Source of the DNA: a virus
Taxonomy: Duplodnaviria > Caudoviricetes
Direction: 5' to 3' (one strand)
Length of the DNA: 64,000 bases
IMG/VR virus record: IMGVR_UViG_3300035034_000127
Span: 8,031 to 72,030 of that record
Shown here: positions 7,485 through 58,474 of the stretch, piece after piece
Layout: each line of letters opens with the position of its first letter
Position numbering within the stretch: the stretch's first letter is position 1
Notes under the pieces: generated by a model
Database searches by the model: none
What the model was told of the DNA's origin: nothing
The model's input: only the letters and a program-made list of their open reading frames with translations
Translations under genes and position numbers: made by a program

Positions 7485-8079
7485 TTTTCCTCCCTATCAA
7501 CATAAATCTTGTGTACAGTGGTGTTTCTAGTTCGTCGCGGTGTATAACTTCTATTTCCGAATGTTCTTCAAATTCTTGTAGTGTTGAGTGGCACCGAACG
7601 TGCTCTGCACAATCAAAATAGTTGTTACTCTGCAGAACAACAAGCGCATTCGTCGGAACTAAGCTTAACCACTGATCATATTGTACTTGTGTTAAGTGCT
7701 CACAAATAGTGTTAATTACTACGTCACCTCTATATATCTGCCGAGTTAAATCGCCAGTAATTGCTCGGAACCTTCCCTGCATCTCTTGTCTTTTATTTAC
7801 CGTGCAGGCTGTTTCCTCACAGTAAGGATCGATATCGTAAGAATGTATTTCTCTAATTTGCAGATTGCTATTAAATAAAATACTAGCAAGCACGCCGTTC
7901 CAGCCACCGTGAATGACATATTTCGATGCACTTGTAGGGGCATACCTAGTAAGTGCTTCTACTAACCATACTTTCGATCGTACTTGTCCCTTCCAAAAGC
8001 TCTCAAGAGTTCTGTATCTACTACTCGAGTTGCGCACCGCATCCATCCAAAATAATACGTCTTCGATTTCTACTTTCAT
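7477..8079 (-). CDS. Class I SAM-dependent methyltransferase
   Basis: Motif I-like VIHGGWNG, acidic YDIDP, and VVINTICEHL. Start moved to ATG 8079 (MKVEIEDVLFW), coupled to the upstream stop. Confidence 0.7.
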   Translation of the reverse strand: MKVEIEDVLFWMDAVRNSSSRYRTLESFWKGQVRSKVWLVEALTRYAPTSASKYVIHGGWNGVLASILFNSNLQIREIHSYDIDPYCEETACTVNKRQEMQGRFRAITGDLTRQIYRGDVVINTICEHLTQVQYDQWLSLVPTNALVVLQSNNYFDCAEHVRCHSTLQEFEEHSEIEVIHRDELETPLYTRFMLIGRKIV

Positions 8080-13826: not shown

Positions 13827-14670
13827 TTAGGTATCTCCTATACGTGTCAAGTACTGAGTTTTCTTTCACAAAGCTGTTTTCAGTATAGTGAAATATGCCT
13901 GTCTGCAAGTAGTTTCCTATCTTTAGCTCACAGTTATCGTTAATATAAGTTCCTACAGATTCCTGCCAGCTTGTCTGTACACTTTTCCAGTCCTGTGCGT
14001 GGGGTTTCATGTGAGTGAAACATGGGAACTTAGCAACCTTATTAGTAATATTACTTTCGCAGGCAAGTATCTTTGTAACAATTGCTGCACATACGTCTAC
14101 GCTGTAATGCTGTGGACTACTACTGTCCTTGTTTGCATATAATTCATAAAACTTCTCCCAATTGTATGTTACAAATTCCAACCATCTATAAAACTCATGA
14201 GCAAAGTCACATTTCTTAAAATAATGAAACCCACTATATATATTTGGCAAATCGTTAATTACAAAAGTTTTTCTATAAACACTGCTGGTTACTAATTCGT
14301 TTCTGTACGTATGAACCGCACTAGTAAAGTACAGATCGTAGTTGTTAAGAAAAGTTACCCAGTTAGATATATCCTGTAGTACCAACATATCTGTATCCAT
14401 TACAATAGTTCTTTCGTAAGGTGTAGAGTGATATATCTTCCAGCGGTTTTCTACCTTCCATTCTTTATTAGCAGCATGGTCGCCAAACGGAATAGGTATT
14501 ATTTTATCAAACAGTGGTTGATACTCCTGCGGCACTGTGTCGTTAGTAACCAAGCTTACAGGGAGAGAAGGATTTGTCACGCTAACGCTCATTGCCAAAA
14601 GACAAGCTTGCTGTACGTAATCGTCATTGGCGTTATTTTGAGCAAGTACTACTATTCCGGTATTATCCAT
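13819..14670 (-). CDS. GT-A fold glycosyltransferase (GT8/mannosyltransferase-like)
   Basis: TPYERTIVMDTDML (DxD), YSGFHYF, HMK, FHY; paralog of the next gene. Confidence 0.7.
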   Translation of the reverse strand: MDNTGIVVLAQNNANDDYVQQACLLAMSVSVTNPSLPVSLVTNDTVPQEYQPLFDKIIPIPFGDHAANKEWKVENRWKIYHSTPYERTIVMDTDMLVLQDISNWVTFLNNYDLYFTSAVHTYRNELVTSSVYRKTFVINDLPNIYSGFHYFKKCDFAHEFYRWLEFVTYNWEKFYELYANKDSSSPQHYSVDVCAAIVTKILACESNITNKVAKFPCFTHMKPHAQDWKSVQTSWQESVGTYINDNCELKIGNYLQTGIFHYTENSFVKENSVLDTYRRYLNV

Positions 14671-24013: not shown

Positions 24014-27000
24014 TTATTCTGGCTGCGCCGAAGTTCCTGCACGTAAGAAGTTTGCTATTGGTGTGTTAGTTGTTGCAAGAGATTCGCCGGGTTTAGCCCA
24101 CGTATTTCCAACTTTTTTAACTACTGTAACTCTTACATTTTCAGCCGGTACTGTAGTTAGCACAATTTCTCCGTCCACAATTTCAAAGTCTGCAGGTATA
24201 CTAATATCGCCGTCCGGACTATTTAATGCAACTGTTGCATCAAAAACCTGCGTTGCTTGCTTGCGCAATCTAGTGCCAGCTACAAATACTTCAATTTCGT
24301 TAACTGACGATATAGTAAAGCCAATTGCAAACGATCCAGTAACGCCATCTGTCGTAAAATTCTGTACAATAGTTCTGTCTTTATACGGAATTGTTTTGTC
24401 ACTGTTTTGATCGTACACTTTTGTTCCTACAGCATGCTGTTGGGCAGTGCCTGTGCCCAGCGTACCACGACGCAATTGTCGGAGTGTGTTACCGTCTTTA
24501 ACAAAATATTCAATTCTTTCTTTGTCAATAAAGATAATTCCAGGGAGATTTCTCCCTTTATCCGGCACTGCTAGGTTCGCCCCGTCTTGAACTTCGATCC
24601 TAAGATCATAACTATTTAAAGGTTGAGCAAGGGTTGTTACTGCACTGTTTAGACGCTTAAAGTGTGTTCTGTTGAGTATGTCTTTAAACTGGCGATATGC
24701 AAACGTTGACACATTTGTTGCCGCGGAGACATCTCTATTATAAACTCTCAAATCTAGCGCGTCCATTACCTGTCCAGATACTAGCTCCTCTGGTCCTCCG
24801 CTGGTTGTTGGAGTTATGAAGCTGTCACCGTCGACAATAATTTCCTCTGGGTTAATTCCTCGCGCAGACGAGTACGCAAGATTGCCACCTATCAATGCTT
24901 GGTCATAACTTTCATCATCAGGCGCTACACTACCGTCGCTAGTGGATTTTCTAATTATCAACACATCCTCGTTGACCAACGTAATTCCTAGATCAGCTAG
25001 CTCAACTACAGAAGTCGAACCGTCACCGAAGATACTTGATGTTACTGCATTTTGGTTAACCTGTTCTGCGGTTCCGTATTCTGGATCGTCTAAACGAATA
25101 CCGTTCTTGTAGATGTTATAAATAACGCCATCTTCAAGAGCCTCTCTTAATTCAACAGCAGTTGTTGACCCATCTGCTACAAATACTTCATCTTCAAAGT
25201 TAGTACCATCAGTGTCCCATGTATCAGTATACCATCCTTCGGTATCCCACCCTGTTTCTATTTCAAAGCCCAGCCCGCTAACTTCTACTCCGCCATAATC
25301 AATCCCTGTCATTACCTGTGCTAGTTCACTACCTAACATTCCACTTAATGGGTTATATGCAAACTTAATTCTGTCTGCTGCTGACAACATACTTATTGGT
25401 CTGTAATACTCTATTCGTACATCAGACTGGTTAGCAGGAGGCTTAGTAAATATTATTCTTCCTTGCTGGTAAGTGTAGCCATTGGATATCTGTTGAGTGC
25501 CTGGCCCTGCTGCTACATTACCATTACCGTAGTTAAAATCTTCAGCTAATGTATCAATAGTCGGAGAGTAGGTTATATTAGTGTATGAATACTGGCTTCT
25601 CAACTGCTGCACTTCATTAACATATACTTTAACTTTTCTGTTATCAAGATCCATTGGCCATTTCAAGTTGTAGTTAATATCTACATTTGACCCTACAAAA
25701 TTAGCAACTTCTGCCAGTTCTTCTATAGTGTATTGTCCAGAAGTTCTATCAAACTTAATCTTAACAGTAGGTGTACGTACAACACCGTCGCCTAGTATAG
25801 CTGTTGCAGATGCCCTAATTCCAACGTCACTCTGTGGAACATCAATTATTACAGTTGGCATATTGATATACCCAACGCCAGGCGACGTAACTTTGATAGC
25901 AGTAATTTTGCCATAGCCGATAAATGCCTTAGCAGTGGCCTGCTTTGCAGATGCTCCTTCAAGTTTAATCTCAGGAGCAATGGTATAACCACTACCTGGG
26001 TTTTGTATCCTAACCTCAGTAACTGTGTATCCAATGTTGTCCTTCCAGTATTTCCTTGGGTAAGAGTCTGTATTAGCCCCTGCATCAATTAGTTCACCGT
26101 TACTGATAAACGCTTTGCTTGTAACAATTCGTTTAGTCAGGATGTCGTATTGTGGTGCTAAATCAAAGTCAGTAACAGCACTTTGAGTATCGTCGATACT
26201 AGTGTAGGAACTTATAAACTCTCGTACTTTAGAAGAATAAGGTTTTACTTCGTTTACATAGGCTTGATAACTAGCTAGCTTATCGTTTTCAAAGTTTACT
26301 TTTTGATCAAGGTTACCTACATTATGCTTAACGTTGATAAACGCTGACTTAAACATCCAGTCAACTGCCGGCTGCTCAGATAGCACGTATCTAAGGCTAG
26401 CAAAGAACAACTGGTTGTATTCAACTGCTAACTCTGCAATGAATAGGTCGTCACGTATAACTTCAAAAATTATTCTTAGTTCTTTTGCAATAACACTATC
26501 GTAAAAGAAACTGTCGTAACTTCTGCTGTCAAAGCCAACTGCATTTTTCTCAACATTATATAAGCTTTCATTAAAGCTTATAGTTCCTGCTTGACGTCCG
26601 ATAGTATCGTAATTAATCGTAAAATCTTCAGTTTCTTCGTTGGCAATCTTTTTAAGCAGTAACCAGCCACCGCTGCTTATACTTTTAGCTTTTACTACAT
26701 TGCCAATAGTGTCACGTAGGCCTCCTAGCAAGTAAGTGCCCTCGATCTCAAAATCAATGTCAGTAAACTGATTAAACCCTTCTGCATACCAATCTCTGTA
26801 GTCCCAGAACCTGGACACGTCAAACGCTTGAATCTGCGTTCTAAACCAGTTTCTCTCAATTTCGTTCCACGAATATATTGCCCATTTGCCATTTAGATTA
26901 TCGTCATTATTTACTAACACACTGTAGCGTCTTGGCAGCAGCACTGTTGCATCACCGTAGCCACTGCCTTCATTTGTAATAATTGCAGTTGTAACTTGAC

Positions 27001-30000
27001 CTAAATTGTTTATAGACAACTTAACTTCAAAGTTCTTACCGGCGCCTGCTACTTCGACTGTAGGTTCGATCTTATACCCTCTTCCCGAAGACAGTATGTT
27101 AACTTGAATTATCTTACCATTAACGATCACCGGTTCTAGTCGTGCTGGTGTAATTTTGTTTATACTTAAAAAGTCTAGGTCAAATGTCGTGTCAACAACA
27201 ATATCGTATTTACGAGTAGCAATCGAAGGTGCATCGTCCTTACTAAACAAGCGCGAAGTTTGATATTGATCTACTACAAGATTCTTGGATAGTACTAGGT
27301 TTACACGCTCAATAAACTGCTTTAATGCTTCAGTCCTATTTACAAACATTCCCTGTCGTGGTCGATTTTGAATACCTGTGCGTTTTGCTATCGGAATAGC
27401 AGGGTTTGGCACTGGTCTGTTGTTTTCATCAAACCCAATTAAGCTATCGAACCACTTGCGTTCGATATCTGCGGTAGGCTTACTTACTCCTGATCCGTCC
27501 GACATCAACAGGTATTGTAAATGTGTATTCTGTATCTTAGTTTCTCGCGTATCATATCTAATGTTAAGTACCACGTCATCTGATGTAACAATATTTTCAA
27601 AGTTGTTCAACACCATTCTTGAATCACTTAAGAAGCTAACAAATCTATAACCCTGCTCTCTAGGTGATCTAATTAAATTAGTAATATCAAATATACTTAG
27701 TGTGCGGTTAACAGGTACGTCACGCTTGTTCTGCACCCAGAAGTAATAGACAGTACTAAACGTTTGACTAATATCATCATAAGTCAACCTAGCGCTATAT
27801 TTTTCATCGCCGTATAACGAAGTCCCAGTAATACCTAACGAGGAGCCCGCATCTGTTGCTGATAATGCATCCCACCGCAACGGAGTATACTGCGTTTCAA
27901 CCCATTCATAAACATCTATAGAGGCCCCTTGAGCAAGAACGTTCCATACCTCCTTTTGGTACGATATGCTTCCTTGGTAAGGCCATTCAAATCTAGCAGT
28001 GTTAATATTCCACCAAACTTGTCCTACTTGCTTTTCCGCCCAGAATATGTCAACGTCAACTGTGTTGTCACTTAGGATTCCTACGTTATACGCTGCTGGG
28101 TCTGTACCTATCTTGTAGGTAATGTCCTGCTCGGCAATACCTGCAATCTTGCCCTGAACTGGATCAATATAATCCAAGTAAGTGATAATTTCGTTAGTAC
28201 GTTTGTTATAGACAAACACACCCTGAATCTTCGAAATATCTACTGGAACAATACTTTCTCTTAATACGTTCCATGCAAACTTGCCTTTCGGCTTTCTGTA
28301 ATCAACAACTACACCTTGGCCCGTAGTTGTAACCAGCGAAGGAATTCCTACGTAGACGTGATTACCGTTTGATAATAAAGTTTCACCAAATTGGCTAGTT
28401 GCACTGTCATACCTAAATCTTTCGCTAAAGACAAGTTGATCGTTTAGTGTTTCAAATATGTATACAACACCTGAATCCAGTATAGTTTCGTTAAACCTAG
28501 TGAATCTATTGTCAATTATAGTCTCATTGTTGGTCACTAAGTCGAACGTTGTCGGAATCTTTTGATCCCCGTTCAGACTCGATATTACCAAATTATCTTG
28601 ACCGTAACTCATATCGTACCCAAACTGCTCGCCTTCTTCGTTATTAGGCGGAAGCAGTGTTTGGGTCAATACAAACTCACTGTCAACTTGCATATAGATG
28701 TATACTTGCCCTTGATTTACTTTTGCAGAATCATCAAGAGAAGCACTGATAGCAAAAGACATACCGTCTGGTCGCATGCTAATTTTGTATGCCCAGTTAG
28801 TTGAGTTTTGCAATTCCGGAGCATTTATTATTTGAGATAACAAAAATTTATTGTCTGTTTCTCTATAAATTAATACTCGAGTGTCGTTAACCGTGCTATC
28901 AGAACCTGTAATAGTAGCGGTAGTTACAATTACCTGGCCGTTTGAACTAATATCATATGCCTTACTGAAGTCTACTAACACATTCGGAGTATTACTGGAT
29001 TCAAACACTTCCTCGTTGTATGCTGTAAATCCGGTAACGTTTGGCAAAAATCCCACATAGTCTATTAGGTTGGATAGTTGCTTCCAGTCTGTTGTGACAA
29101 AACCAGCACCGGTTGATATGTTAGTAACAGCGCTATAGAATTTATCATTATAAAAAACAATAGAACCCTCTGCATAACCATAGCTGTTATTCCATTCTCC
29201 TCTGTAGTTTGAATCTTTTCCTTGCTTCCAACTGATGTTAGCCCAAAATATTGAATCTTTAATCCTACTTTCTACTTCGGTTTGATCTTTATTAGCAACA
29301 TAGTAATCGTCTTCGAAGGTAACTATATCTCCTTTTATGTAAGTGCCCGGTGCATAATTTCCCTTGAAGTTTTCGCCCGCCAGTGCGCCATGCCTAAAGA
29401 TTTCAATGCCGCCTACTAACTCTTGTTGGTCACCATTGCCTATACTAGATACAAACAAAGTATAATAGTTGCCTACTTGCCTAATTTCTACATCTCTGCC
29501 AAACTGCCTATCTTCCATTCCGTATTCTGACACAATAGTACGCTGATAGCTGTAGGTGCCGCCAGTTAGTCTTCGGTATATTGCTACAGCACCTTCGTTT
29601 ACTGGTCCAGCTGTTCCGAAGTTGTCTGCTTCTATATGGTATATTTGAACGTAATCCTTGTTTAGACTGAAGGGCGGATTAGGTACTCGGCCCGCTCCCT
29701 GTGCTATATTTTCTGTATAGAACCAATATTCTTCGCCAGTTATTGGAATAATTTCATTCCACTTTCTGCTATCTGCAAAAATTTCGTCTGCTTCAAATAC
29801 TATTAACTTACCTATTAGGTCATTACCTACACAGATATCATTATCGGAATCTTCAACGACACCAATAATTCGATCAACATCTGCTTGACCTCTTATAGCA
29901 GTGTTGCGGTTTCTTTTAACATTGTAACGGCCTATGTTGTTTAGCTGGTCCCATGTTCCGGTTATGTTTTTTACATAGACTCTGACTTGGTTAAAGTTTC

Positions 30001-33000
30001 GTTGTACCCATGTAACTTCGGCACTGCTAGTGGTTATTCCGGTAATTGCAAGTCCACCTTGGCCATTACGCGGCATCTGTAAATCTTCTAAAACATCGCC
30101 TATTTGAGGTTGAAACACAAATCCCTGTGCGTCAAACCTAGTAAAATTAAAGTCAATATAACCATCCCACATGTCTACTATTGTTTGTAATTTGTTGAAT
30201 GTTGAATAGCCTCCAGTTAGCCCGCTAGGAGCAAAGTTAATAATTCGCTCGTTAGATTCGAATAGGCTAAGTTGAAGTTGATCACCGGATACTAGCGTAT
30301 CACTGAATACTTTACCTGTCCTAACTAACCATTGACTGCTGGGTACACTGACTTCGGGGCCAACCTGCCCATCAGCCGAAGTTAAATCACCAGTAAAGGA
30401 TAGTTGAGCAACAAAACTAGCTTGATTTCGATCATCAAAATCATTGCCTATAACGCCTGCTGTTAGCTGTATATTGTAGTAATCGTTGACCTCACGCGTC
30501 TCGTTCTCTATCCTGACATCGGCATAAACTAATCCCTTACCTGCATCATAATAAACACCATTATTAGAATAATCAGTAGGGGTTTCAATGTACCAAAATC
30601 CTGTTACTGCATCATTAGTACTAACTGTATCTTCTTCAGTGTAAACGCCAATTAAATCCTGATTGTCTATAAACAGCTGGCCAGATGTTTCAAATGTACC
30701 GTTTGATTCTTTTAGGTAAATGATGACTCCGTCTCTACTGGTGCTAACATAATAAACAGTTGCTTGGCCGGTGTCAGTAGTTACTCTGTCGTTTACTGAC
30801 GGCAGTGCAGTATATAACTCAACATAAAAGACATGGTCTATCTTTTCCTTAATAATATGCTCTTGGTTCAAAAAGCTAGAAGAGATTTCCGGTATAAGTC
30901 CGTCAAATGGCTCGTAAAAATCCAGTGTAGGATAAGAGTAACTGCGAGCATTCCAGAACAAGTTAACTTTATCGCCAGCTGTTGTTCCTTGGTACATTTC
31001 TTTAGGCGCACGTACTAATATGTGATTAGTAATATTATTTGCCAGTTGCGAATCGCCTGCTATTATCAGTGCAGCAAGTTGGTCATTATCATCAAACGAG
31101 CCTATAATGTTGTTGTACGAGCTAAAGGTCGAGAACGGCTGAGTGGAAATTTGAGGAAAAATTGTTCTGTTGGCTCTCCACAAGCTTTCTCTAAACTTAA
31201 CAATTTGATTTTTTGTGTAAGTAGCGTCTGGGTCAAACAGCCCTTGAAACCTAGTTTTAACGCCAGATGCCTGAGGTAATCCGGCGATTAAATATTCACC
31301 GTCTGGCGACACACTTACTGAAGACGCAAACCCGTTAGCAAAGGAGGTCATTAGTCCTTGCTGGGCAAAGCTTATTTCCTGATCTAGTTGCACATTAAAA
31401 CTTTCTGACGACCGTCTATAGTAGTATACTTTTCCGTTTTCTACTTCTGGAGCCGTTACAAACACGTTATTGTTATCAGCAGTAACCAATACCTCGTTAC
31501 CGTATTTGTGTTCAATACCTTCTTCTTGAACAGGATTAGTAAGTGCCTGCTCGTTAGTATATACGCTGGAGTTATTTAGAACAGCCCAATCGCCATTGTA
31601 ATTATCAATCCATGCTGTTTGGTCTTGGTATAGTGTATCTTGTACAACATCCTGTAGTTCTAAAAGATTGTTTAGTCTAACTGAACGCAGCAAGGTTAAC
31701 TGAAAATTTTCATCAGCAAATGTTTCAAATGCTGCATCGGTTGGTACACGAATGTTAATAACGTTTAACTTAATCAGGTCAATACTATCAACTTCGTAGA
31801 ATCCATTAACTCCTAATGTTCGAGTGTCTCTTACTCCTATAATATCGCCAACTAAAATGCGATTAGTTGTGTATCGATCCAACGTCAACTCTCGTAAGGA
31901 GTCACCAAACTTGTTAGTTTCCTTATTATCAAGTAATTTACTAACCTTTATCCCAGTTGTTACGTGCTGATAAACATCCCATGGTCGGTCAAGTATTTCG
32001 GTAATCCAGATGTATTCACCTAGTGCAACGTCATCTACATTGCCATTTCTAAGATCTTCTGTAGAGCCAGCAACAAAGGTTACGTCGTTTTCGTCTACGT
32101 AGCCAGCAGTTCTCACATACTCGTTAACTAACGGCTTAGTAAAGAACGGTGCTCCTGTATAGTTAGCAGGCTTATCATACAGCTCAAAAGATTTTATTCT
32201 GTAGACTTTTTCCAAATTACTTAGAGGAATGTCATCTGTTAATTCAATAGTCTGCGGAGAAATCCGTATTTGGTCTTGTTTCAAATTGATCTCAATTTGA
32301 CTTGTGTTATCAATTGCACCATACCGGCCAACTTGTATGGCCCATTCTTCAAAGAACTCTAAGCTTTCTTTACCTGCTGCACCTAGTTTTTCGAACATTT
32401 TGGACAATGCATTTTTAGTACCTTTGTCCTGAATCATGCCTTGATAAAACTTGTACTGAGAAACGTCATCAGTAATGATGTTTGCTAGGTACTGTCTCTT
32501 TTGATAGCCAGTTAAATGTTGTGCCATTCTTTGTAGCTCAGCATCAAACCCGTCTGTATCAAGATCATAAAAGTCAGTAAACTGATTAATCCTATAATCA
32601 AAGTTAGTGATTAGTTCTGCTTCTGGCTTTTTGCTCAATCTGTACCAAAGATTAGTATTAAATTCTTTTGAACCAGGTACGTTTTCTGTAGCTACGTAAT
32701 AGAATTGCTTGTACTTAACCAAGCTGCCAATTTGAAAATCTTTCCAGCTGGCCCATTCAGAAATAACTGCGCCATCGTAAACAAAACCAGGAATGTTTAG
32801 TCCACCGTTCCAATCACCTGAACGGTAACCTACTATCTTAATCCGATCTCTTCTATACCCAGTTGATGGCTCATAAATTATATCGTTAAAGATGGTTCGA
32901 TTGTCTATTACGACTACATGTTCTTTTTGTACTAACGCAAGTGCTACTGAATACAACCCGTCGTCGGTGTTTACTGTTTGTATTCCGAAACTATTTTGAT

Positions 33001-36000
33001 CTCGTAACAAGCTACTATATTCGCTTAGCAAAGCAAGTCCATCTGCTTTTAGCAAGCTGTATGTATAAAAATTATCAAAAATGTTGTCTACTACTGTAAA
33101 GTCTCTTTTGAAATTAACCTTGTTAGCAGCTGGTGAAATTGTAATTGCTGTGCCCGCAGCCCATCCTTGAGTAGACCAAAACAAAAACTCTTTTGCTGCT
33201 TGGTTCCAATTATTAACTGTTTCGTTTTCAACATAATTAAAATCGAACCCTAAATCTTCTAGTCTTTGACCGTAACCTAGCAAGAAGTCTATAACTTCTT
33301 GCGACGACTCTAGTCTTTCCCCATACTGTAGAGATAGTACCTTTCTGTTATCAAAGTTCTTTTTAAAGTTTGCTGACTTCCCCCCGTTTACGGGCAGCTT
33401 AGGTAGCTTGGCTAGATTATCTGTAGAAAACAACTGAGCTGATCTAAATCGAGCAGTAGCTCTATAATAAACATTGTTATTTTCGATTACTTGCCCTTCA
33501 TAAAATTGAGTGTCGGACTGCCACGCTGACGGAATTTCTGATATTCCACCCACAGTTATATCCACACTTGAAGTGCCTACTCTTGGGGCGTAATAATCTA
33601 AGAACGGCATATCGTTATTGTAGCCGCGTAACAAGAATCCGCCTGCTGTTTTTTCAATAGCTACACCGCTGTATATTACAAAATCAACAGGAGAGCTAGT
33701 ATTGAAGACTACTTCATAGTTCTCCTGAGGAACGAATACTCCTGCTTGCGTATCTGTTCTCGGAGTTGTACTTTCCAACACTAGATTAATTTTAGACTTA
33801 TCACTAAAGCCTGCTAGTTTAAATCCTAGCTGATTTCTTAATTCTAAAAACTGTAACTGATAATCGGAATATACAGAAAGTATATCACCTGCTACTAAAT
33901 TATAAATGTAATTTACAAAGCCGCTAGTTAATACTCTGCTACTATCCTGAGAAGTATTTGGAAACACAACATCAGCATTAGACATAAACTTCCTAGTCTC
34001 TGAGTAAACTTGCTGTCCTACTAGGTTAGTTGTAATTCTACTAACGTCATATCCCGCTGCGAACACTTTAGCAGGTTGGTTTAACAGCATTGTAGTTACT
34101 ACAGAGAATGGATATTGTGAACTTCTTCTCCACGCGGTTTCGACAGGAGATTGGTCACCAAACTTAAAACTCTGCGTGCTTAATCTTAAAATAAAGTTCT
34201 TAACATAGCTAGACGCTAGCGGTGATTTTAACTTTCCTTTTTGGTCCGACGGAATAAAATTTACCAAACCAGGTCTTGCAAATTTGGCAAGAAATATAAT
34301 GTTCTTGCCAGGTTCGCGTACAATACCCTGTTCAAGGTCACGCCACATGTTGAGGTTATCACCTGTGTAAGGTGCCGAACCGTAAGATTCGTTCCACCAC
34401 AACGGCTTGATTCTAAATCCTAACATTTCCCAAGGATGACTATGCGGTCTGTCAGTGTCAAATGCCTGCTTATAAACAGCTCGCCAAAATCCTAGTAGGT
34501 CTTCATCTGCTAGATTATTTGCATTAGAATAGTTGTAGGTAAACTCATTGGTCCTATCATAGAAGAAATTATCAGTGTAGTCATTGTCTACTAATTTAAG
34601 CCATTGAGTAAACTCAGGTGACAAACTTTTATTAATTTCTGCTGAGCTAAACTCCGACGGTCTAAAGTCGCCGCCGAAGAATCCGTCTACATCAATTACG
34701 TCTTCAGACCATTGTACTTTAATATTGTTAAAAATGCGTTTTTCAAAATCAAGCAACAACTCGTCTCTGAAATCTAAGTAGGCTCGAACATAGCTTCCGT
34801 CGTGGCCTCTAATAAAAGGAATGCCTACCGGATACGCATCTATTTCGACGTCGTCCTGGCCTCCCAGTATATTTGCCGCACTGTTTGCTATGTAAAGTGA
34901 TTCAGTTAGGCCTTTAAATCTGACTGTCGATACTTGGCCCGACCCGCCTGCATCTTGATCTGCGGTTTTTGCAGCGCTCTTAGTAGTATATACAGGGCGA
35001 AACCAGCCGCGAGCAGCATTTGCGGCTGCGACATCTTGTTCGCCGTAGACCTTATATGGGCCGGAATTGGCTGGCGCTGTTGTTTGATACGTGTCGTCAA
35101 TTGTTAGCTCTGGTGAAAACTTAGGGTACAGTCCTAGCTTGCTAGGGGTTGGGGCAACAAATGAACCGTCTGTAACTTCATATTCAATCAGCTCAAGAAT
35201 ATCACCTTCCTGCTGTCCAGCATTAACAACAACAAATCCTTGAGGATCAAATGTATAATGCTGTCCTACAGTTAATTGCTTGCCGTTTAGGTAAACCAGC
35301 ACGCTGCTTGCAGAAAGAGTTTCTAGATCAAATGCATTATTTAATGCGTATAATTCTGTTCTTGAATCTAGAATCTGGTATTCTATAATATTGTTAGGTC
35401 CGTAAGCTATCATATCTGAGAAGTAAAACGGTTGTGTTTTGATCTTGTCTTTGTTAACACGCTCTAGGATCTTGTCAACATGCCTTGAAGTGTTGCCGTC
35501 AAAACCTAGAGTGGTCGCTGTCTCTAAAAATATTCTCTTGAACTTTGCATACTCGTCGCGACTGTATCGCAACGCCTTGACAATGTTGTATTCCTTGCTA
35601 GTTGTGTGATATAATGGAAAGTTGATCGATCCCGAATGCTTTACGAATTTCTTACCAAATCTAGAAACGTCTCCTAGATCTCTTAGGTTTCCTGGGCCCG
35701 GAAACGCACCTGCAAAACTAGGAACTTCTTCAATCAACGAATCAACATGAGCTATAACTTCACCTAAAGTAAAGTCTTTGATATCCTCATTTAGAGGATT
35801 TCTTTCTAGGTTATGTGGAAACTCATAATATCCATTGTTATTTTTAACAGTTTTTGAGTCTGTTTTTATTTGTACAATATCACCGCTTAGTAGGTTCTTA
35901 TCAAATTGCACGATTGCTACTTTATTAATTCTGTTAATTTTGTAGTCAACGTTAATAAGTTGGAGTTTGTTGTTTACGTACACAATAGTTGTTAAATCGT

Positions 36001-38113
36001 TTAGTAATCCAGAATCCTTGTATACATCAATACGAAAGTTGTTGTTTTCGATATTAGTAACTTCATATTGTCTAATCACATACTGCTTGGATTTAACCGG
36101 AGTCTTGGACCATCCATTAAGCCATTCGAAGCTGGTTCTCGTTGAATACTTTCTTAGCAGAGCACTGCCAGTAGTTACTTCAGCTATTCCTTCATCTGCC
36201 TGATATGTAAATTTATCACTAAGAAGATTAAAGTCAAATAGTATGTCACCTGAGTTTTCAATATTTCTGTATGCTAAGGGAAAGCCTAGCTCTAAGTCAT
36301 TAGATCCCAATCCTTGCCTATAGCTAAATAGTTTGGTTCCGTTAAACGTCGTGCTATCAAAGATATCAGGATCTTCAAGTCTATTACCGGCTTGGCAGTC
36401 ACATAGATCAAAGCGTGGAGCTTGGTTTAACGTTTCTTTTAGTTGGCCTTTCTTCCACGTGTTATTGTAATAAAAACTTACGCCAGCATTTGCTTTGCCT
36501 TGTGTTACCAGTACAGTTTCATTTTCCTTAGGTTCGCTGTCCTCTACCTCAACTAAACTAATTTGTCGTTGGTCACTAACATTGATAAAATTGACTTCAT
36601 AAATCTTACCATTTATAAGGACGTCGGTATCTGCAGTAAACAATACTCGCATGCCCTGAGTTAGATCAACATTATCTACGTTGTATCCCAGCTGGCCTTC
36701 GATAGTAGAAAACACATCTTTTGTAAAATCGTCAATCAGCGTAACGTCGGCTTTAGCTTCTGTTCCAAAAGAATACAGCTTTAGTCCTGCTTCAAATTCA
36801 ATAATAGGACGTTTTGCTCTAGTTTCTTCGTCGATATTTATAGGAAGATCGGCTTGCTCAAAGCTGGCAGTAATAACATCTTTATGGAACCATCTGTTAT
36901 ATCGCGACCACGCATTACGGTCTTTGCTTGCTCGGTTGCTTAATATGTAGTCTTTTGATTTAGCATACGAACTGGCGTTAGCGAACGGAAACCTGTCAAA
37001 CTGATCAGAGTCGTAAGGAATCAACTTGTTAGTAGAGTAGGCCGCAGGTATAACTAGGTCAGCTTCGTTGATCAATCTTATATTGGTACCAACTCCTTCA
37101 ACATACCATGCTGAGTTAGCGTAGTATGCTGGAGTTATGTTTCCAACAAAAGTTAGCTTCATACCGTTACTTAGGTCTAGTCCGGTTGCTGTTTGATATG
37201 TTTTCTTTCCTAGTATATCATCAGCAACATCAAGAAAGGTATTACTCTCTATATCGTAAATTCGAAAAAGTCCGCTAGTGTCGATACTATTTTTACTTAG
37301 GTAGAACACTCGTTCCGCTGCATTATACGGTACTGTGAATTCAATCGTACCCTTCTCGATATACGCAATAGCTACTTCCTGGCCGGCGTCGTCTAAATTA
37401 CGTACGCCGTCCGGAAGCAAAGTGGATACATTTACTGAATCATCAAATATTCTGTTAACAGAAAACGCTAATGGATATCCAGGAGTGTTGATTTCAAATC
37501 TGTATGTCTGTCCTCTGTAAAGTTTTAGAGTTGGATTTCTTGTCGCAGTGTCATTAAATACATAGGCAACATTGTCGCCATCGTCTACAGTTGAAACTGA
37601 GTAGGTGCTTACAACGTCACGCTGCTCGCCTGATACTTGAATAGATAAAGGTCCATTGGGTAGCCAATAGTACTCACGAAAGTTAACAAACTTATCGTAA
37701 TCAATATGAGGAGCCCAAGCGTAAGTGTCTTGTGAATTTAAACGGCTTGCGTTATCTGTGTTTGCGCCAAAATATCTCAGCGAGCCAAGGTAGTCGTTAT
37801 AGTCTTTATAAAAAGTAACGTTGTCTAGATTATCCTTAATAACAGCCACTGGTTCTAGTTGATAATTGCCTCTATCAATACTTACGTCACCGATGTAATT
37901 GTCAGTACTCTTATAGGCCTTGGCAGTCTTGCGCCCAACAAACCCGTTGAGCTTTTCAGCTACGCCGGGCTGAATTAGCTGATCAATTGTGCCTTGCAGA
38001 AATTTTCTGTTAGCTTCTGTCCTAAAGAATTTAGGTAGAAGGTCTGCTGCTGTACGCTTAGTATTGCCTGGCGTCGGAAGTGGGCTCTCGTTTTGACTAT
38101 CGTTATAAGCCAT
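24014..38113 (-). CDS. Giant (4699 aa) baseplate wedge / virion structural protein
   Basis: One uninterrupted ORF directly downstream of the gp6-like gene (the gp7 position); contains FG-GAP-like propeller repeats, CBM-like W/F...Y..G..V.Y repeats and GSGY beta repeats. Confidence 0.7.
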   Translation of the reverse strand: MAYNDSQNESPLPTPGNTKRTAADLLPKFFRTEANRKFLQGTIDQLIQPGVAEKLNGFVGRKTAKAYKSTDNYIGDVSIDRGNYQLEPVAVIKDNLDNVTFYKDYNDYLGSLRYFGANTDNASRLNSQDTYAWAPHIDYDKFVNFREYYWLPNGPLSIQVSGEQRDVVSTYSVSTVDDGDNVAYVFNDTATRNPTLKLYRGQTYRFEINTPGYPLAFSVNRIFDDSVNVSTLLPDGVRNLDDAGQEVAIAYIEKGTIEFTVPYNAAERVFYLSKNSIDTSGLFRIYDIESNTFLDVADDILGKKTYQTATGLDLSNGMKLTFVGNITPAYYANSAWYVEGVGTNIRLINEADLVIPAAYSTNKLIPYDSDQFDRFPFANASSYAKSKDYILSNRASKDRNAWSRYNRWFHKDVITASFEQADLPINIDEETRAKRPIIEFEAGLKLYSFGTEAKADVTLIDDFTKDVFSTIEGQLGYNVDNVDLTQGMRVLFTADTDVLINGKIYEVNFINVSDQRQISLVEVEDSEPKENETVLVTQGKANAGVSFYYNNTWKKGQLKETLNQAPRFDLCDCQAGNRLEDPDIFDSTTFNGTKLFSYRQGLGSNDLELGFPLAYRNIENSGDILFDFNLLSDKFTYQADEGIAEVTTGSALLRKYSTRTSFEWLNGWSKTPVKSKQYVIRQYEVTNIENNNFRIDVYKDSGLLNDLTTIVYVNNKLQLINVDYKINRINKVAIVQFDKNLLSGDIVQIKTDSKTVKNNNGYYEFPHNLERNPLNEDIKDFTLGEVIAHVDSLIEEVPSFAGAFPGPGNLRDLGDVSRFGKKFVKHSGSINFPLYHTTSKEYNIVKALRYSRDEYAKFKRIFLETATTLGFDGNTSRHVDKILERVNKDKIKTQPFYFSDMIAYGPNNIIEYQILDSRTELYALNNAFDLETLSASSVLVYLNGKQLTVGQHYTFDPQGFVVVNAGQQEGDILELIEYEVTDGSFVAPTPSKLGLYPKFSPELTIDDTYQTTAPANSGPYKVYGEQDVAAANAARGWFRPVYTTKSAAKTADQDAGGSGQVSTVRFKGLTESLYIANSAANILGGQDDVEIDAYPVGIPFIRGHDGSYVRAYLDFRDELLLDFEKRIFNNIKVQWSEDVIDVDGFFGGDFRPSEFSSAEINKSLSPEFTQWLKLVDNDYTDNFFYDRTNEFTYNYSNANNLADEDLLGFWRAVYKQAFDTDRPHSHPWEMLGFRIKPLWWNESYGSAPYTGDNLNMWRDLEQGIVREPGKNIIFLAKFARPGLVNFIPSDQKGKLKSPLASSYVKNFILRLSTQSFKFGDQSPVETAWRRSSQYPFSVVTTMLLNQPAKVFAAGYDVSRITTNLVGQQVYSETRKFMSNADVVFPNTSQDSSRVLTSGFVNYIYNLVAGDILSVYSDYQLQFLELRNQLGFKLAGFSDKSKINLVLESTTPRTDTQAGVFVPQENYEVVFNTSSPVDFVIYSGVAIEKTAGGFLLRGYNNDMPFLDYYAPRVGTSSVDITVGGISEIPSAWQSDTQFYEGQVIENNNVYYRATARFRSAQLFSTDNLAKLPKLPVNGGKSANFKKNFDNRKVLSLQYGERLESSQEVIDFLLGYGQRLEDLGFDFNYVENETVNNWNQAAKEFLFWSTQGWAAGTAITISPAANKVNFKRDFTVVDNIFDNFYTYSLLKADGLALLSEYSSLLRDQNSFGIQTVNTDDGLYSVALALVQKEHVVVIDNRTIFNDIIYEPSTGYRRDRIKIVGYRSGDWNGGLNIPGFVYDGAVISEWASWKDFQIGSLVKYKQFYYVATENVPGSKEFNTNLWYRLSKKPEAELITNFDYRINQFTDFYDLDTDGFDAELQRMAQHLTGYQKRQYLANIITDDVSQYKFYQGMIQDKGTKNALSKMFEKLGAAGKESLEFFEEWAIQVGRYGAIDNTSQIEINLKQDQIRISPQTIELTDDIPLSNLEKVYRIKSFELYDKPANYTGAPFFTKPLVNEYVRTAGYVDENDVTFVAGSTEDLRNGNVDDVALGEYIWITEILDRPWDVYQHVTTGIKVSKLLDNKETNKFGDSLRELTLDRYTTNRILVGDIIGVRDTRTLGVNGFYEVDSIDLIKLNVINIRVPTDAAFETFADENFQLTLLRSVRLNNLLELQDVVQDTLYQDQTAWIDNYNGDWAVLNNSSVYTNEQALTNPVQEEGIEHKYGNEVLVTADNNNVFVTAPEVENGKVYYYRRSSESFNVQLDQEISFAQQGLMTSFANGFASSVSVSPDGEYLIAGLPQASGVKTRFQGLFDPDATYTKNQIVKFRESLWRANRTIFPQISTQPFSTFSSYNNIIGSFDDNDQLAALIIAGDSQLANNITNHILVRAPKEMYQGTTAGDKVNLFWNARSYSYPTLDFYEPFDGLIPEISSSFLNQEHIIKEKIDHVFYVELYTALPSVNDRVTTDTGQATVYYVSTSRDGVIIYLKESNGTFETSGQLFIDNQDLIGVYTEEDTVSTNDAVTGFWYIETPTDYSNNGVYYDAGKGLVYADVRIENETREVNDYYNIQLTAGVIGNDFDDRNQASFVAQLSFTGDLTSADGQVGPEVSVPSSQWLVRTGKVFSDTLVSGDQLQLSLFESNERIINFAPSGLTGGYSTFNKLQTIVDMWDGYIDFNFTRFDAQGFVFQPQIGDVLEDLQMPRNGQGGLAITGITTSSAEVTWVQRNFNQVRVYVKNITGTWDQLNNIGRYNVKRNRNTAIRGQADVDRIIGVVEDSDNDICVGNDLIGKLIVFEADEIFADSRKWNEIIPITGEEYWFYTENIAQGAGRVPNPPFSLNKDYVQIYHIEADNFGTAGPVNEGAVAIYRRLTGGTYSYQRTIVSEYGMEDRQFGRDVEIRQVGNYYTLFVSSIGNGDQQELVGGIEIFRHGALAGENFKGNYAPGTYIKGDIVTFEDDYYVANKDQTEVESRIKDSIFWANISWKQGKDSNYRGEWNNSYGYAEGSIVFYNDKFYSAVTNISTGAGFVTTDWKQLSNLIDYVGFLPNVTGFTAYNEEVFESSNTPNVLVDFSKAYDISSNGQVIVTTATITGSDSTVNDTRVLIYRETDNKFLLSQIINAPELQNSTNWAYKISMRPDGMSFAISASLDDSAKVNQGQVYIYMQVDSEFVLTQTLLPPNNEEGEQFGYDMSYGQDNLVISSLNGDQKIPTTFDLVTNNETIIDNRFTRFNETILDSGVVYIFETLNDQLVFSERFRYDSATSQFGETLLSNGNHVYVGIPSLVTTTGQGVVVDYRKPKGKFAWNVLRESIVPVDISKIQGVFVYNKRTNEIITYLDYIDPVQGKIAGIAEQDITYKIGTDPAAYNVGILSDNTVDVDIFWAEKQVGQVWWNINTARFEWPYQGSISYQKEVWNVLAQGASIDVYEWVETQYTPLRWDALSATDAGSSLGITGTSLYGDEKYSARLTYDDISQTFSTVYYFWVQNKRDVPVNRTLSIFDITNLIRSPREQGYRFVSFLSDSRMVLNNFENIVTSDDVVLNIRYDTRETKIQNTHLQYLLMSDGSGVSKPTADIERKWFDSLIGFDENNRPVPNPAIPIAKRTGIQNRPRQGMFVNRTEALKQFIERVNLVLSKNLVVDQYQTSRLFSKDDAPSIATRKYDIVVDTTFDLDFLSINKITPARLEPVIVNGKIIQVNILSSGRGYKIEPTVEVAGAGKNFEVKLSINNLGQVTTAIITNEGSGYGDATVLLPRRYSVLVNNDDNLNGKWAIYSWNEIERNWFRTQIQAFDVSRFWDYRDWYAEGFNQFTDIDFEIEGTYLLGGLRDTIGNVVKAKSISSGGWLLLKKIANEETEDFTINYDTIGRQAGTISFNESLYNVEKNAVGFDSRSYDSFFYDSVIAKELRIIFEVIRDDLFIAELAVEYNQLFFASLRYVLSEQPAVDWMFKSAFINVKHNVGNLDQKVNFENDKLASYQAYVNEVKPYSSKVREFISSYTSIDDTQSAVTDFDLAPQYDILTKRIVTSKAFISNGELIDAGANTDSYPRKYWKDNIGYTVTEVRIQNPGSGYTIAPEIKLEGASAKQATAKAFIGYGKITAIKVTSPGVGYINMPTVIIDVPQSDVGIRASATAILGDGVVRTPTVKIKFDRTSGQYTIEELAEVANFVGSNVDINYNLKWPMDLDNRKVKVYVNEVQQLRSQYSYTNITYSPTIDTLAEDFNYGNGNVAAGPGTQQISNGYTYQQGRIIFTKPPANQSDVRIEYYRPISMLSAADRIKFAYNPLSGMLGSELAQVMTGIDYGGVEVSGLGFEIETGWDTEGWYTDTWDTDGTNFEDEVFVADGSTTAVELREALEDGVIYNIYKNGIRLDDPEYGTAEQVNQNAVTSSIFGDGSTSVVELADLGITLVNEDVLIIRKSTSDGSVAPDDESYDQALIGGNLAYSSARGINPEEIIVDGDSFITPTTSGGPEELVSGQVMDALDLRVYNRDVSAATNVSTFAYRQFKDILNRTHFKRLNSAVTTLAQPLNSYDLRIEVQDGANLAVPDKGRNLPGIIFIDKERIEYFVKDGNTLRQLRRGTLGTGTAQQHAVGTKVYDQNSDKTIPYKDRTIVQNFTTDGVTGSFAIGFTISSVNEIEVFVAGTRLRKQATQVFDATVALNSPDGDISIPADFEIVDGEIVLTTVPAENVRVTVVKKVGNTWAKPGESLATTNTPIANFLRAGTSAQPE

Positions 38114-38127
38114 TATTAATTATGTCC

Positions 38128-56735: not shown

Positions 56736-57170
56736 ATGCATTGGACCTATGAAGGCGTAACTATTATTGAGATACCAGACGAGTATGAAGGATTTGTGTA
56801 TCTCATTACCAATCTACAGTCCGGAAAAAAATATATTGGCAAGAAGCTGGCTAAGTTTAAAACTACCAAGCCACCGCTTAAAGGTAAAAAGAATAAACGC
56901 AGAGGCTTTAAAGAAAGCGACTGGAGAACCTATTGGGGTTCGTCAGATAAGTTAAATGCTGATGTAGCAGCTTTAGGACAGGAGCAATTTACTCGAGAAG
57001 TACTTTATTTTTGTAAATCAAGAGCAGAAATGTCCTACATTGAGGCAAAAGAACAATTTGATCGCAAGGTACTTGAAACTGATGACTACTACAACGGTAT
57101 TATCAATGTTCGAGTAGGCGGATCAGAGAAATTAAGACAGTCACTAATAGAAAACAAAAATTTAAAATAG
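56736..57170 (+). CDS. Small single-domain GIY-YIG nuclease (Seg/endonuclease II-like)
   Basis: GFVYLITN...KKYIGKK, YWGSS, F.REVL, conserved Glu (YIEAKEQ) and YYN; 144 aa with no separate DNA-binding extension. Confidence 0.8.
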   Translation: MHWTYEGVTIIEIPDEYEGFVYLITNLQSGKKYIGKKLAKFKTTKPPLKGKKNKRRGFKESDWRTYWGSSDKLNADVAALGQEQFTREVLYFCKSRAEMSYIEAKEQFDRKVLETDDYYNGIINVRVGGSEKLRQSLIENKNLK

Positions 57171-57195
57171 GCAAGACAGGCATCTTCAGGCAAAG

Positions 57196-57635
57196 ATTAT
57201 TTCTTAGTTGTTGCGAACAAAGCAAGAAGTAATACACACTTAGGCATCAAAACAACACACAAGGCTGGCAGGCCGGACTATAATACTGCTGTGAAACAGC
57301 CGGTTGGTACCCGGACACGAAACATGTTGAGACACTCCCCTTCGAGAGACATCGTCGTAGCTGAAAAGGCAAGCGAGTTAAGTATTGACATAGAACGTTT
57401 GTTGGCGTTCAAGAAAAAATCGCACACTCCTAAAAACTGTACATCTAGGAACGAAAGTACAGGCGGCATGTTAAAATGCTATATCGACGTAGGTTGGGAA
57501 AGGTCAGAACCCGTGGAGTGAACAAATACCTGCTTCCAATGTGTCTTGGCTGGAAATACTCACATGAAGTATATTCATTAAGCAGACGGAACCTTTAAAC
57601 AGGTTCCGTCTGACCAGAGCAATCTACATGAATCA
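57196..57635 (+). ncRNA. Candidate large structured non-coding RNA (family not recognised; boundaries and strand approximate)
   Basis: Only long intergenic region of the window; many complementary segments, including a 12-bp perfect hairpin (57583-57612), a pseudoknot (57428-57462) and long-range pairings (see findings). Confidence 0.6.
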
Positions 57636-57745
57636 TTCAAAACAAAAGAAAAACAATTGCTTAAATCACTTATACAAACAAATTACCAAATTCTTTTTAC
57701 TATATTCACTTAAGAAACTATTAGTTTGAGCGTAGAGCGAAAACT

Positions 57746-57766
57746 AAATGAGCAAAGCTCATTTTT
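57746..57766 (+). terminator. Hairpin, possible intrinsic terminator
   Basis: AAATGAGC-AAA-GCTCATTT followed by TT; preceded by the TAGTTT/AAACTA hairpin at 57722-57746. The stem is AT-rich, so the call is weak. Confidence 0.45.
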
Positions 57767-57768
57767 AG

Positions 57769-57776
57769 TATAAATA
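57769..57776 (+). promoter_or_regulatory. T4-type late promoter TATAAATA
   Basis: Exact T4 gp55 consensus about 30 nt upstream of ATG 57806. Confidence 0.75.
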
Positions 57777-57805
57777 CATCTATATACACTTGGAATAACT
57801 CTCAT

Positions 57806-58474
57806 ATGAAGATGCACGAAATTAATGAAACACCTCTTGATGAGCTGGATGGTGACGGCGTAGGTAGGTCTCTGGGAAAGGCAGCTAAGTCTGTTGGCAA
57901 GGGCATTGCTGATTTTGGTAAAGGATTTAAAGCAGGCTTTACTGGAAAGAGTAGACGTGCCACGCCATCTAATAGAACCGCTGCATCATCTAATAGAAGT
58001 GGTGCAACGCCTCGTCGACGCACAAGGCCAACTCCTGCTGGCACTCCACCACCTGAGACTACTCCAACTCCTACTGGCACTCCACCTGCCAATTCCAGGA
58101 ATGCTACTCAAACTGATACCTTTGCAAAAGCAAAATCAGATATTAGAAAAGTACAGGGCGGGCAAAAACCTATGCCTCATAACACTGCTGTTGTAATTAA
58201 CCGCGCACTAACACAGTTATCTAAAGGCAGCAAAGAGCATGGGGTATGGGCAGCAGAGAAAATTTTAAGATTCGCTAGCGCAGGAGTAAACGTTACTAGA
58301 CAACAGCAACAGTGGATAGCAAACGCTAAAGCAGGGGAACGATTCCTGACGCAGAGCAGATATCTTGAATTATCAAGAATGTTACGCGAGCATGGAATTA
58401 GGTGGATTGACTTAGGATTAAGGATCCACCTGGTTGAAAGCACTAATAAACTAGTTGGGATCAGTCGAGTTTAG
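57806..58474 (+). CDS. Hypothetical basic protein, possible internal head protein
   Basis: Late promoter; N-terminus MKMHEINETPLDE with I/L-x-E motifs; Arg- and Pro/Thr-rich linker. Confidence 0.6.
   Translation: MKMHEINETPLDELDGDGVGRSLGKAAKSVGKGIADFGKGFKAGFTGKSRRATPSNRTAASSNRSGATPRRRTRPTPAGTPPPETTPTPTGTPPANSRNATQTDTFAKAKSDIRKVQGGQKPMPHNTAVVINRALTQLSKGSKEHGVWAAEKILRFASAGVNVTRQQQQWIANAKAGERFLTQSRYLELSRMLREHGIRWIDLGLRIHLVESTNKLVGISRV

Follow-up and report, generated by a model that had tools for sequence, protein, structure and literature searches.

The subject of this report is a 64,000-nt stretch of viral DNA (the window), bases 8031-72030 of a 72-kb Caudoviricetes record (IMGVR_UViG_3300035034_000127), and more precisely the gap that follows a GIY-YIG nuclease gene on its + strand. 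Ahead of the gap the + strand carries genes for a gp47-like phosphoesterase and a gp46-like SbcC/Rad50 protein, an 85-aa open reading frame (ORF) and the 144-aa GIY-YIG gene; behind it come a 222-aa + strand gene and then, on the other strand, gp51-like and gp26-like baseplate genes, and the gap thus lies between recombination-nuclease genes (gp47/gp46) and baseplate genes (gp51/gp26). Here we describe within this gap a conserved non-coding RNA gene of about 400 nt, twin-box RNA type 1, which is present in at least 140 viral contigs from uncultured marine giant T4-like phages and which holds one short word twice. The features of the locus are collected in Table 1.

A conserved structured RNA in a gene-free gap

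With 631 nt (57171-57801) free of any ORF of 90 aa or more, the gap is the longest such stretch of the window, the runner-up among internal stretches measuring 280 nt. The original prediction, made by eye from the letters of the window, had singled it out as the only large intergenic gap and had noted a core richer in G+C than its flanks; the values are 0.43-0.49 over 57175-57624 versus 0.25-0.35 outside. In the 72-kb record the RNA is present as a single copy.

Of 593 confirmed stretches obtained by searching viral contigs with the GIY-YIG protein, 80 were retained, and blastn of the gap against GIY-YIG loci revealed two conserved blocks around a variable part in a dozen of them. A pattern drawn from the most conserved block (the P9 region) matched at least 120 further viral stretches, and an nhmmer profile of the first alignment found the RNA in 140 of 202 loci. 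The 107 full-length copies reduce to 92 distinct sequences and, once pairs above 93% identity are removed, to the 79 sequences of alignment A2, of which the window is the first row. In one sub-group (L150, L122, L105, L088, L111, L159, L156, L154, L093, L165 and L207) the match to the type 1 profile is confined to its 3' half (positions ~180-430). Just ~100 nt separate the nuclease gene from that half in these loci, and their 5' domain has therefore been replaced or much reduced.

Helices were found by mutual information and stacked-pair scans and then counted on A2. The resulting fold comprises 75 pairs in 13 helices with two pseudoknots, and 95.8% of its 5783 cells are paired, compared with 85.2% in shuffles and 36-42% when partners are slid by 1-3 columns. 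Compensatory changes on both sides are seen at 47 of the 75 pairs, and not one of 500 shuffles reaches the observed value on any measure. The three helices of the 5' region (P2, P3 and P3a) show both-side changes at 10 of their 12 pairs, and P9 and P10 are 99.1% and 97.5% paired with few changes. G-U pairs are invariant (79 of 79) at two positions and frequent at several others, and one pair of P11 is U-G in 50 of the 79 sequences; these pairs fit the + strand only, which places the RNA on that strand. An alternative in which AUCUAC at box 2 pairs with the 5' strand of P9 was tried and discarded, as it is lost in relatives with a different P9.

Table 1. Features at the twin-box RNA locus, in window positions. 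Pairs and compensatory (both-side) changes refer to alignment A2.
Feature	Position	Strand	Remarks
GIY-YIG gene, SegE type	56736..57170	+	144 aa, catalytic domain only; Pfam PF19835, PHROG
Lineage-specific insert with hairpin 57196-57233	57171..57240	+	70 nt; outside family core; matched only in L001/L081/L082, 94% identical
Conserved structured RNA, twin-box RNA type 1	57241..57640	+	~400 nt; profile and covariation
PK1	57252-57257 / 57400-57405 (P5 loop)	+	6 pairs, 5 with both-side changes, 97.4% paired
P1, closing long-range helix	57263-57267 / 57611-57615	+	5 pairs, 97.5% paired, changes mostly one-sided; weakest helix
P2	57268-71 / 57286-89	+	counted on A2
P3	57290-93 / 57316-19	+	counted on A2
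P3a	57300-03 / 57311-14	+	counted on A2
P4	57324-30 / 57385-91	+	5/9 pairs compensatory; encloses domain variable in length and sequence
P5, hairpin	57393-97 / 57406-10	+	5/5 pairs compensatory; loop forms PK1
PK2	57426-57430 / 57515-57519	+	5/5 compensatory, 97.1% paired; crosses P9, 3' strand inside P9
P7, hairpin	57437-41 / 57458-62	+	5/5 compensatory; near-invariant loop GGAACGA 57448-57454
P8, hairpin	57463-69 / 57476-82	+	5/7 compensatory; 8 to ~90 nt long in relatives
P9	57486-94 / 57528-35	+	most conserved block; encloses P10 and PK2 3' strand
P10	57495-98 / 57510-13	+	inside P9
Box 1, ACAUGAA behind invariant ACUC	57562..57568	+	single-stranded, in junction inside fold, 5' of P11
P11, hairpin between boxes	57585-93 / 57602-10	+	9 pairs, 98.5% paired, 4 compensatory
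Box 2, ACAUGAA behind invariant AAUCU	57626..57632	+	11 nt past closing helix
A+T-rich spacer	57641..57768	+	G+C 0.25; composition
Motif GAGCG-N-GCGAAAAC	57728-57744	+	within A+T-rich spacer
Hairpin	57746-57764	-	within A+T-rich spacer; listed as terminator-like site
TATAAATA	57769..57776	+	read from sequence; precedes 222-aa gene
222-aa downstream gene	57806..58474	+	variable neighbour; no Pfam/PHROG family; only 2 viral loci carry it

The original prediction had proposed a pseudoknotted RNA of 450-600 nt, and the covariation fold retains a good part of what it had drawn. Its stems GAACG/CGTTC (57393-410), CTGTAC/GTACAG (57437-62), GCAT/ATGC (57466-79) and GTAGGT/ACCTGC (57489-533) recur with compensatory changes in the 79 relatives as P5, P7, P8 and P9, and its long hairpin at 57583-612 is P11, with nine conserved pairs and compensatory changes. 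For GGAGTG (57515-20) it had offered two CACTCC partners, of which the one at 57425-30 is PK2 and the one at 57333-38 falls on variable or otherwise-paired bases. The RNA is pseudoknotted as proposed, PK1 and PK2 both covarying, but the knot actually drawn, with stem TCCTA/TAGGA, likewise involves variable or otherwise-paired bases. The family consensus has no place for GCTGT/ACAGC, CGTCG-TAGC/GCTA-CGACG, AGACAC/GTGTCT or ATGAA/TTCAT, all of which involve variable segments or bases paired elsewhere. The 5'-most hairpin (57196-233) does pair in the window, but it sits within the 70-nt insert that is private to the window and its 94% identical relatives, and the conserved RNA is shorter than had been estimated. 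The larger claim of a multi-domain phage RNA, possibly of a new class, is supported by the 13 covarying helices, by the two pseudoknots and by the lack of any Rfam match. For the ribozyme that the prediction had offered as another possibility, a match to a known ribozyme model is lacking.

Could the gap be no RNA gene at all, and instead a decayed coding region (for example a lost DNA-binding domain of the nuclease) or a signal acting at the DNA level only? The gap holds ORFs of 76 aa (+) and 63 aa (-), and the folding-energy check proposed with the original prediction turned out negative, the single sequence folding no better than dinucleotide shuffles (z = -1.51 on the + strand and -0.80 on the - strand). 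However, the 76-aa ORF has no Pfam family, the 79 copies share no conserved reading frame (median longest + strand ORF 36 aa), and insertions and deletions in A2 are concentrated in hairpin tips. Together with the 47 compensatory pairs and the tolerance of G-U on one strand only, these observations leave this explanation virtually no weight.

Judged by comparison with existing models, the family is uncatalogued. None of the 4227 models of Rfam 15 matches anywhere in the window at gathering score, nor in 17 + 11 related loci, which include loci of the sister RNA types described below. When 56900-58000 is searched at E up to 10, only three irrelevant matches appear (14.6-18.7 bits against cut-offs of 47-70), and no ribozyme model is among them. 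The absence of tRNA, tmRNA and RNase P RNA, noted by eye in the original prediction, holds with ARAGORN and the Rfam models. We also considered RF01718, the Polynucleobacter-1 RNA motif (Weinberg et al. 2010, PMC2864571), which is catalogued yet still unexplained. In the 72-kb record its model (cut-off 37 bits, 141 positions) scores only 9.8 bits (E 0.43), elsewhere and on the other strand, and it has no gathering-score match in the 28 related marine loci; the RNA of the window does not belong to that family. A literature search returned no report of a GIY-YIG-associated structured phage RNA with covariation and, on pelagimyophage noncoding RNA, only unrelated work.

Twin boxes and sister RNA types

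The strongest mutual-information signal in A2 that is not Watson-Crick pairing links columns 495-503 with columns 565-573, and it is a signal of identity. The two segments hold one 7-8-nt word twice, and the columns of each box covary only with those of the other. The same 7-mer stands at both boxes in 125 of 141 loci, with 11 word variants among them, and three of the 79 aligned sequences have boxes that differ at position 7. The words change by identity, not complementarity, and cannot pair with each other; sequence 3' of box 2 is not conserved. By twin-box family we mean large pseudoknotted RNAs behind a small nuclease gene in giant T4-like phages that carry one word twice, changing in step, and the RNA of the window has each of these features. 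Both the boxes and the strictness of the GIY-YIG linkage had been overlooked in the original prediction. A hammerhead or k-turn reading of the boxes was rejected, as the core bases misfit by eye and no model matches.

Covariation by identity implies that a single complement is read by both boxes. Nothing within the RNA itself is complementary to them, even with G-U pairs and one mismatch allowed, and no recurrent complement or third copy of the box lies within 2.5 kb of the RNA. In five long related records (79-176 kb, 21-49% complete) an 11-nt complement of box 1 plus its flank is found only at box 1 itself, and there is no third site. The window does contain an exact 11-nt complement of box 1 plus flank at 14006-14016 (+), inside a - strand ORF, where ~0.03 such matches are expected by chance. 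As it is absent from the five long relatives, we regard it as probably fortuitous.

These searches bear directly on the idea that the RNA is a regulator or sponge acting in trans, its boxes binding a complementary RNA or single-stranded DNA from elsewhere in the phage or its host, with which they would co-evolve; the boxes might engage two copies of this partner, or a single copy at one site or the other. Such a partner, read by both boxes, would account for the covariation by identity, and the elaborate fold could serve to present the boxes. On the other hand, the five long records show no complement other than box 1 itself, the match at 14006-14016 is not conserved in them, and 11 words among close phages would need rapid change at two unlinked loci together. 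The complement test is a weak one, since the records cover 20-49% of their genomes. We consider a partner in trans quite unlikely.

A different suggestion comes from the position of the boxes, which flank a conserved hairpin and adjoin the closing helix. The RNA might process itself, or be processed, at the boxes, releasing or circularising the 64-nt hairpin segment or maturing the 3' end, with the fold as catalyst; if both boxes were cut at matching positions, joining the resulting ends would restore a box. An ornate fold with two pseudoknots and invariant unpaired bases would suit a ribozyme. However, the silence of the Rfam ribozyme models extends to E up to 10, 11 freely varying words would not be expected if a protein or ribozyme recognised a fixed site, and an internal guide would need the complement that the RNA lacks. 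Nor is a group I intron indicated, since no gene is interrupted and box 2 is not preceded by a terminal G. Processing at the boxes is therefore improbable.

Among the 62 GIY-YIG loci without the type 1 RNA, 16 share a second long conserved non-coding region (type 2) and 10 share a third (type 3). Type 2 repeats the layout of type 1: it opens 5' with a ACACAUAGG-like segment where the ORF ends, and a first box, a hairpin rich in G+C, the closing strand and the second box follow in that order. Its own pattern matches at least 120 viral stretches. Its boxes are 10 nt long and occur in nine word variants. In 75 of 77 distinct sequences the two boxes agree at nine of the ten positions, and at position 8 box 1 invariably has G where box 2 has A. 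Both boxes can pair with a strand that carries T or U opposite position 8, as the exact complement of box 2 does; a strand complementary to box 1 would fail to pair with box 2. This fixed difference also fits a trans partner with U at that place. The type 2 RNA contains no complement of its boxes in cis. Neither the type 1 nor the type 2 profile detects the other type, and the type 2 profile also misses the window; as no profile score connects the types, the three are taken as kin by their common position and architecture.

The GIY-YIG gene and its linkage to the RNA

The 144-aa protein upstream of the RNA matches PF19835 with 117.9 bits (E 4.1e-34, residues 3-123, cut-off 25 bits), which assigns it to the SegE type, and also PHROG 447 (E 1.8e-36) and PHROG 7363, 'homing endonuclease' (E 1e-15). 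A kinship with T4 endonuclease II was considered and dropped, there being no sequence match in the PDB (best E 0.41, an unrelated chain). In the window the RNA starts 70 nt beyond the end of the gene, and in most relatives, as read from the sequences, the conserved 5' end of the RNA already includes the stop codon of the gene.

To measure linkage free of the protein search we used loci found by the RNA pattern only. A GIY-YIG gene on the same strand lies within 350 nt upstream of the type 1 RNA in 100 of 100 such loci with at least 600 nt of upstream DNA, among the pattern matches listed; 20 more have too little upstream DNA. For type 2, among the matches listed, the gene is upstream in every genuine locus with enough DNA, at 700 nt or less in 96 and farther away in 10, where one or two inserted genes, some on the opposite strand, stand between gene and RNA (for example L214, L215 and L276). 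Four further type 2 pattern matches, in unrelated or coding DNA, were set aside as chance. In at least 29 type 2 loci the unit from gene to RNA is inverted as one piece relative to gp46/gp26. The nearest relatives of the window (L001 1380-2012, -) carry a 210-aa I-TevI-like GIY-YIG gene, on the opposite strand, inserted between the SegE-type gene and an intact RNA, beside which a 36-aa duplicate of the end of the first GIY-YIG gene is left over. The gene and the RNA thus behave as a cassette, inverting whole yet tolerating inserted genes, and strict co-transcription is not required. Looking for just any repeated 8-mer downstream of GIY-YIG genes was uninformative, as such repeats are similarly frequent downstream (40 of 50) and upstream (45 of 56).

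The obvious proposal from this linkage is that the RNA is a partner of the nuclease, as scaffold, guide or regulator, and supplies target recognition through the box in the manner of the omega RNAs of TnpB and IscB. The protein consists of the catalytic domain only and has no DNA-binding domain; the overlap of the RNA's 5' end with the end of the ORF in most relatives, the strict linkage in types 1 and 2, the inversion of the unit as a whole and the fact that three different RNA types each follow orthologous GIY-YIG genes all agree with it. If the RNA does serve the nuclease, this would be the first RNA-assisted GIY-YIG enzyme. Against this stand the inserted genes, some on the opposite strand, that can separate the gene from an intact RNA. 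In phage Melnitz, the gene for the closest named homologue (L203 3998-4438; 67.6% identity) lies behind the ribonucleotide reductase small-subunit gene nrdB with only ~150 nt to the next gene, a family copy without the RNA; the look-alike in phage PA5oct described below, recognized by eye, stands beside a RusA-like resolvase gene with no GIY-YIG gene. All loci come from related phages, so that the linkage may be plain synteny, and a guide of 7-10 nt matching the element's own flank would target the phage itself. We hold a nuclease partner to be unlikely without being far-fetched.

The same arrangement could also be that of a cis-regulatory 3' untranslated region or attenuator, controlling read-through from an early gp47-gp46-GIY-YIG transcript or stabilising the mRNA. 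The RNA lies directly behind these genes on the same strand and at the border of early-type and late-type genes, and several relatives have stable hairpins after box 2. Yet the genes that separate the RNA from the gp51-like and gp26-like genes vary from locus to locus, the cassette also occurs inverted so that it faces the gp46 end, 400 nt with two pseudoknots far exceed what a terminator or stabiliser needs, and the twin boxes are left unexplained. Such a function appears highly improbable.

Downstream of box 2, 49 of 100 distinct loci carry a motif GAGCG-N(2-6)-GCGAAAAC at a distance of 47-95 nt. A hairpin usually comes next and TATAAATA after it; TATAAATA is present within 420 nt of box 2 in 25 of 100 distinct loci. 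The copy of TATAAATA in the window resembles the consensus of T4 late promoters.

As for the genome as a whole, CheckV rates the 72-kb record ~20% complete, from which a phage genome of around 350 kb is probable. The window also holds a single open frame of ~14 kb (~4700 aa; 24014-38119, -) within a block of - strand structural genes, which fits a giant phage. Among 185,579 species genomes, matches occur only in two contigs (335 kb and 153 kb; L207/L208) of one metagenome-assembled genome labelled Candidatus Neomarinimicrobiota. Both show the order gp47-gp46-GIY-YIG-RNA-gp51-gp26, and they are therefore probably phage contigs binned with the bacterium.

Blastn with the type 1, 2 and 3 RNAs against cultured phages gives no match. 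The closest cultured relative by gp46 is the Pseudomonas jumbo phage PA5oct (48.7% identity), where the next genes after gp46 encode a structural protein and a RusA-like resolvase, and ~1.5 kb with tiny ORFs only then leads to the baseplate hub gene. Inspected by eye, this stretch contains a hairpin motif resembling one of type 2, together with a G+C hairpin and two boxes differing only by G/A (NC_071039 ~76.3-76.8 kb, +; L327 ~7180-7680). It escapes detection by the type 1 and type 2 profiles and by Rfam, and its sole relatives are at least 99.7% identical, for which reasons it is a lead; it is possible that it represents a cultured member of the family. The four noncoding RNAs given in the part of the PA5oct paper that reports them (PMC7318152) all have other coordinates.

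Proposed pairing with its own DNA and comparison with known systems

We favor an interpretation in which the partner of the boxes is the DNA of the RNA's own locus. Box 1, held in the junction beside the closing helix, would pair with the template DNA strand at box 2 and so keep the transcript attached to the locus that encodes it, in a persistent R-loop beside the A+T-rich stretch. From this R-loop, DNA replication or recombination-dependent replication would begin, as at ColE1 and T4 oriF/oriG, and the neighbouring junction-cutting nuclease might process the R-loop structure. The template strand is favored as partner because it is the sole complement present in every genome without a further co-evolving locus, and the complement of box 2 as target because of the type 2 G/A rule. 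The A+T-rich spacer that follows box 2 and the nearby recombination genes gp46 and gp47 supply a suitable context. For the reading as a whole, an uncatalogued structured RNA with identity-covarying boxes behind a GIY-YIG gene that pairs with its own DNA, we estimate a probability of about 0.4; taken by itself, the proposed part, in which box 1 pairs with the template strand and an R-loop starts replication or recombination, is somewhat less probable than that.

Carried further, the element may be a portable, invertible origin cassette, in which an 8-10-nt box seizes the template at its twin and DNA synthesis starts when the neighbouring junction-specific nuclease (a GIY-YIG protein here, RusA perhaps in phages like PA5oct) recognises or cuts the R-loop. 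We regard this extension as unlikely.

Several considerations weigh against pairing with its own DNA. The R-loop, a primer end and an origin at this locus are all argued from analogy, and known R-loop origins work without a 400-nt fold and invariant loops. Conservation of this kind is more typical of ribozymes, riboswitches and protein-bound scaffolds, and 7-10 bp make a weak anchor. The strict GIY-YIG linkage, in all 100 type 1 loci and in the inverted type 2 loci, fits a partnership of nuclease and RNA as well or better. Promoter and terminator scans show no excess over shuffles, and GC skew tracks gene strand only, with no feature at the RNA locus. A trans partner may also lie elsewhere, in genomes of which 20-49% is sampled or in the host. 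What probability the readings above leave belongs to something unforeseen.

Large, highly structured RNAs of unknown function are rare, and each one that has been solved revealed new biochemistry. The present family is abundant, two pattern scans giving at least 120 viral stretches each, and it is carried by giant marine phages without a cultured member. The rule of identical boxes, with the fixed G/A difference in the sister type, opens its function to compensatory-mutation experiments, for which PA5oct, on the strength of a resemblance seen by eye only, is a possible laboratory model. If the boxes do pair with the template strand, this phage group would gain its first origin-like element defined by sequence, and the pairing would be a novel means by which an RNA addresses DNA.

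Among known systems, group I introns with a GIY-YIG homing endonuclease (T4 td/I-TevI type) also place a GIY-YIG gene beside a structured RNA of a few hundred nucleotides in a T4-like phage, with a long-range pseudoknot in the core. Here, in contrast, no gene is interrupted, the 26 nt before the nuclease gene leave no room for a 5' intron half, and the order of helices differs. We reject membership, as the flanks are two separate genes, a U rather than a G precedes box 2, and no Rfam intron model matches.

The RNA shares with GOLLD, ROOL, OLE and raiA its size class, many helices, pseudoknots, invariant loops and an unknown biochemical function, and with GOLLD and ROOL a phage or mobile context, but it matches none of their models. 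To our knowledge, none of these four has been described with an identity-repeated word or with a fixed place behind a nuclease gene.

The omega RNAs of IscB and TnpB are large pseudoknotted RNAs at or beyond the 3' end of a small nuclease gene, with a short variable segment at the edge of the scaffold. The twin-box RNA resembles them, and HEARO, in both respects. It differs in that the nuclease is of the GIY-YIG and not the RuvC/HNH kind, transposon ends are lacking, a word of 7-10 nt is repeated inside the scaffold, and genes can be inserted before the RNA. With a GIY-YIG domain protein as neighbour and no match to the HEARO model, membership of the omega RNA/HEARO group was rejected.

The comparison with ColE1 and the T4 origins concerns a likeness in presumed working and not in descent. 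The resemblance does not extend to sequence or model similarity, the boxes are of mixed sequence and not G runs, and the fold is far more conserved and more knotted than in ColE1, oriF or oriG; an antisense regulator, an RNase H site and a DNA start, moreover, are not known here. In the passages of PMC4412123 that treat these origins, oriF and oriG consist of a promoter and an unwinding element and form an R-loop, and the persistent hybrid of ColE1 depends on contact between an rG stretch in the RNA and a dC stretch in the template strand. As proposed here, the twin-box RNA would, like ColE1 RNA II, be a folded transcript that acts on its own template, an upstream stretch of the RNA contacting the template farther downstream, with an easily unwound region beyond it. 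An upstream RNA segment able to pair with the downstream template is what the equality of box 1 and box 2 in 125 of 141 loci provides, and the type 2 G/A rule fits it as well. The rG/dC contact of ColE1 needs two like stretches on the same strand, as the twin boxes do.

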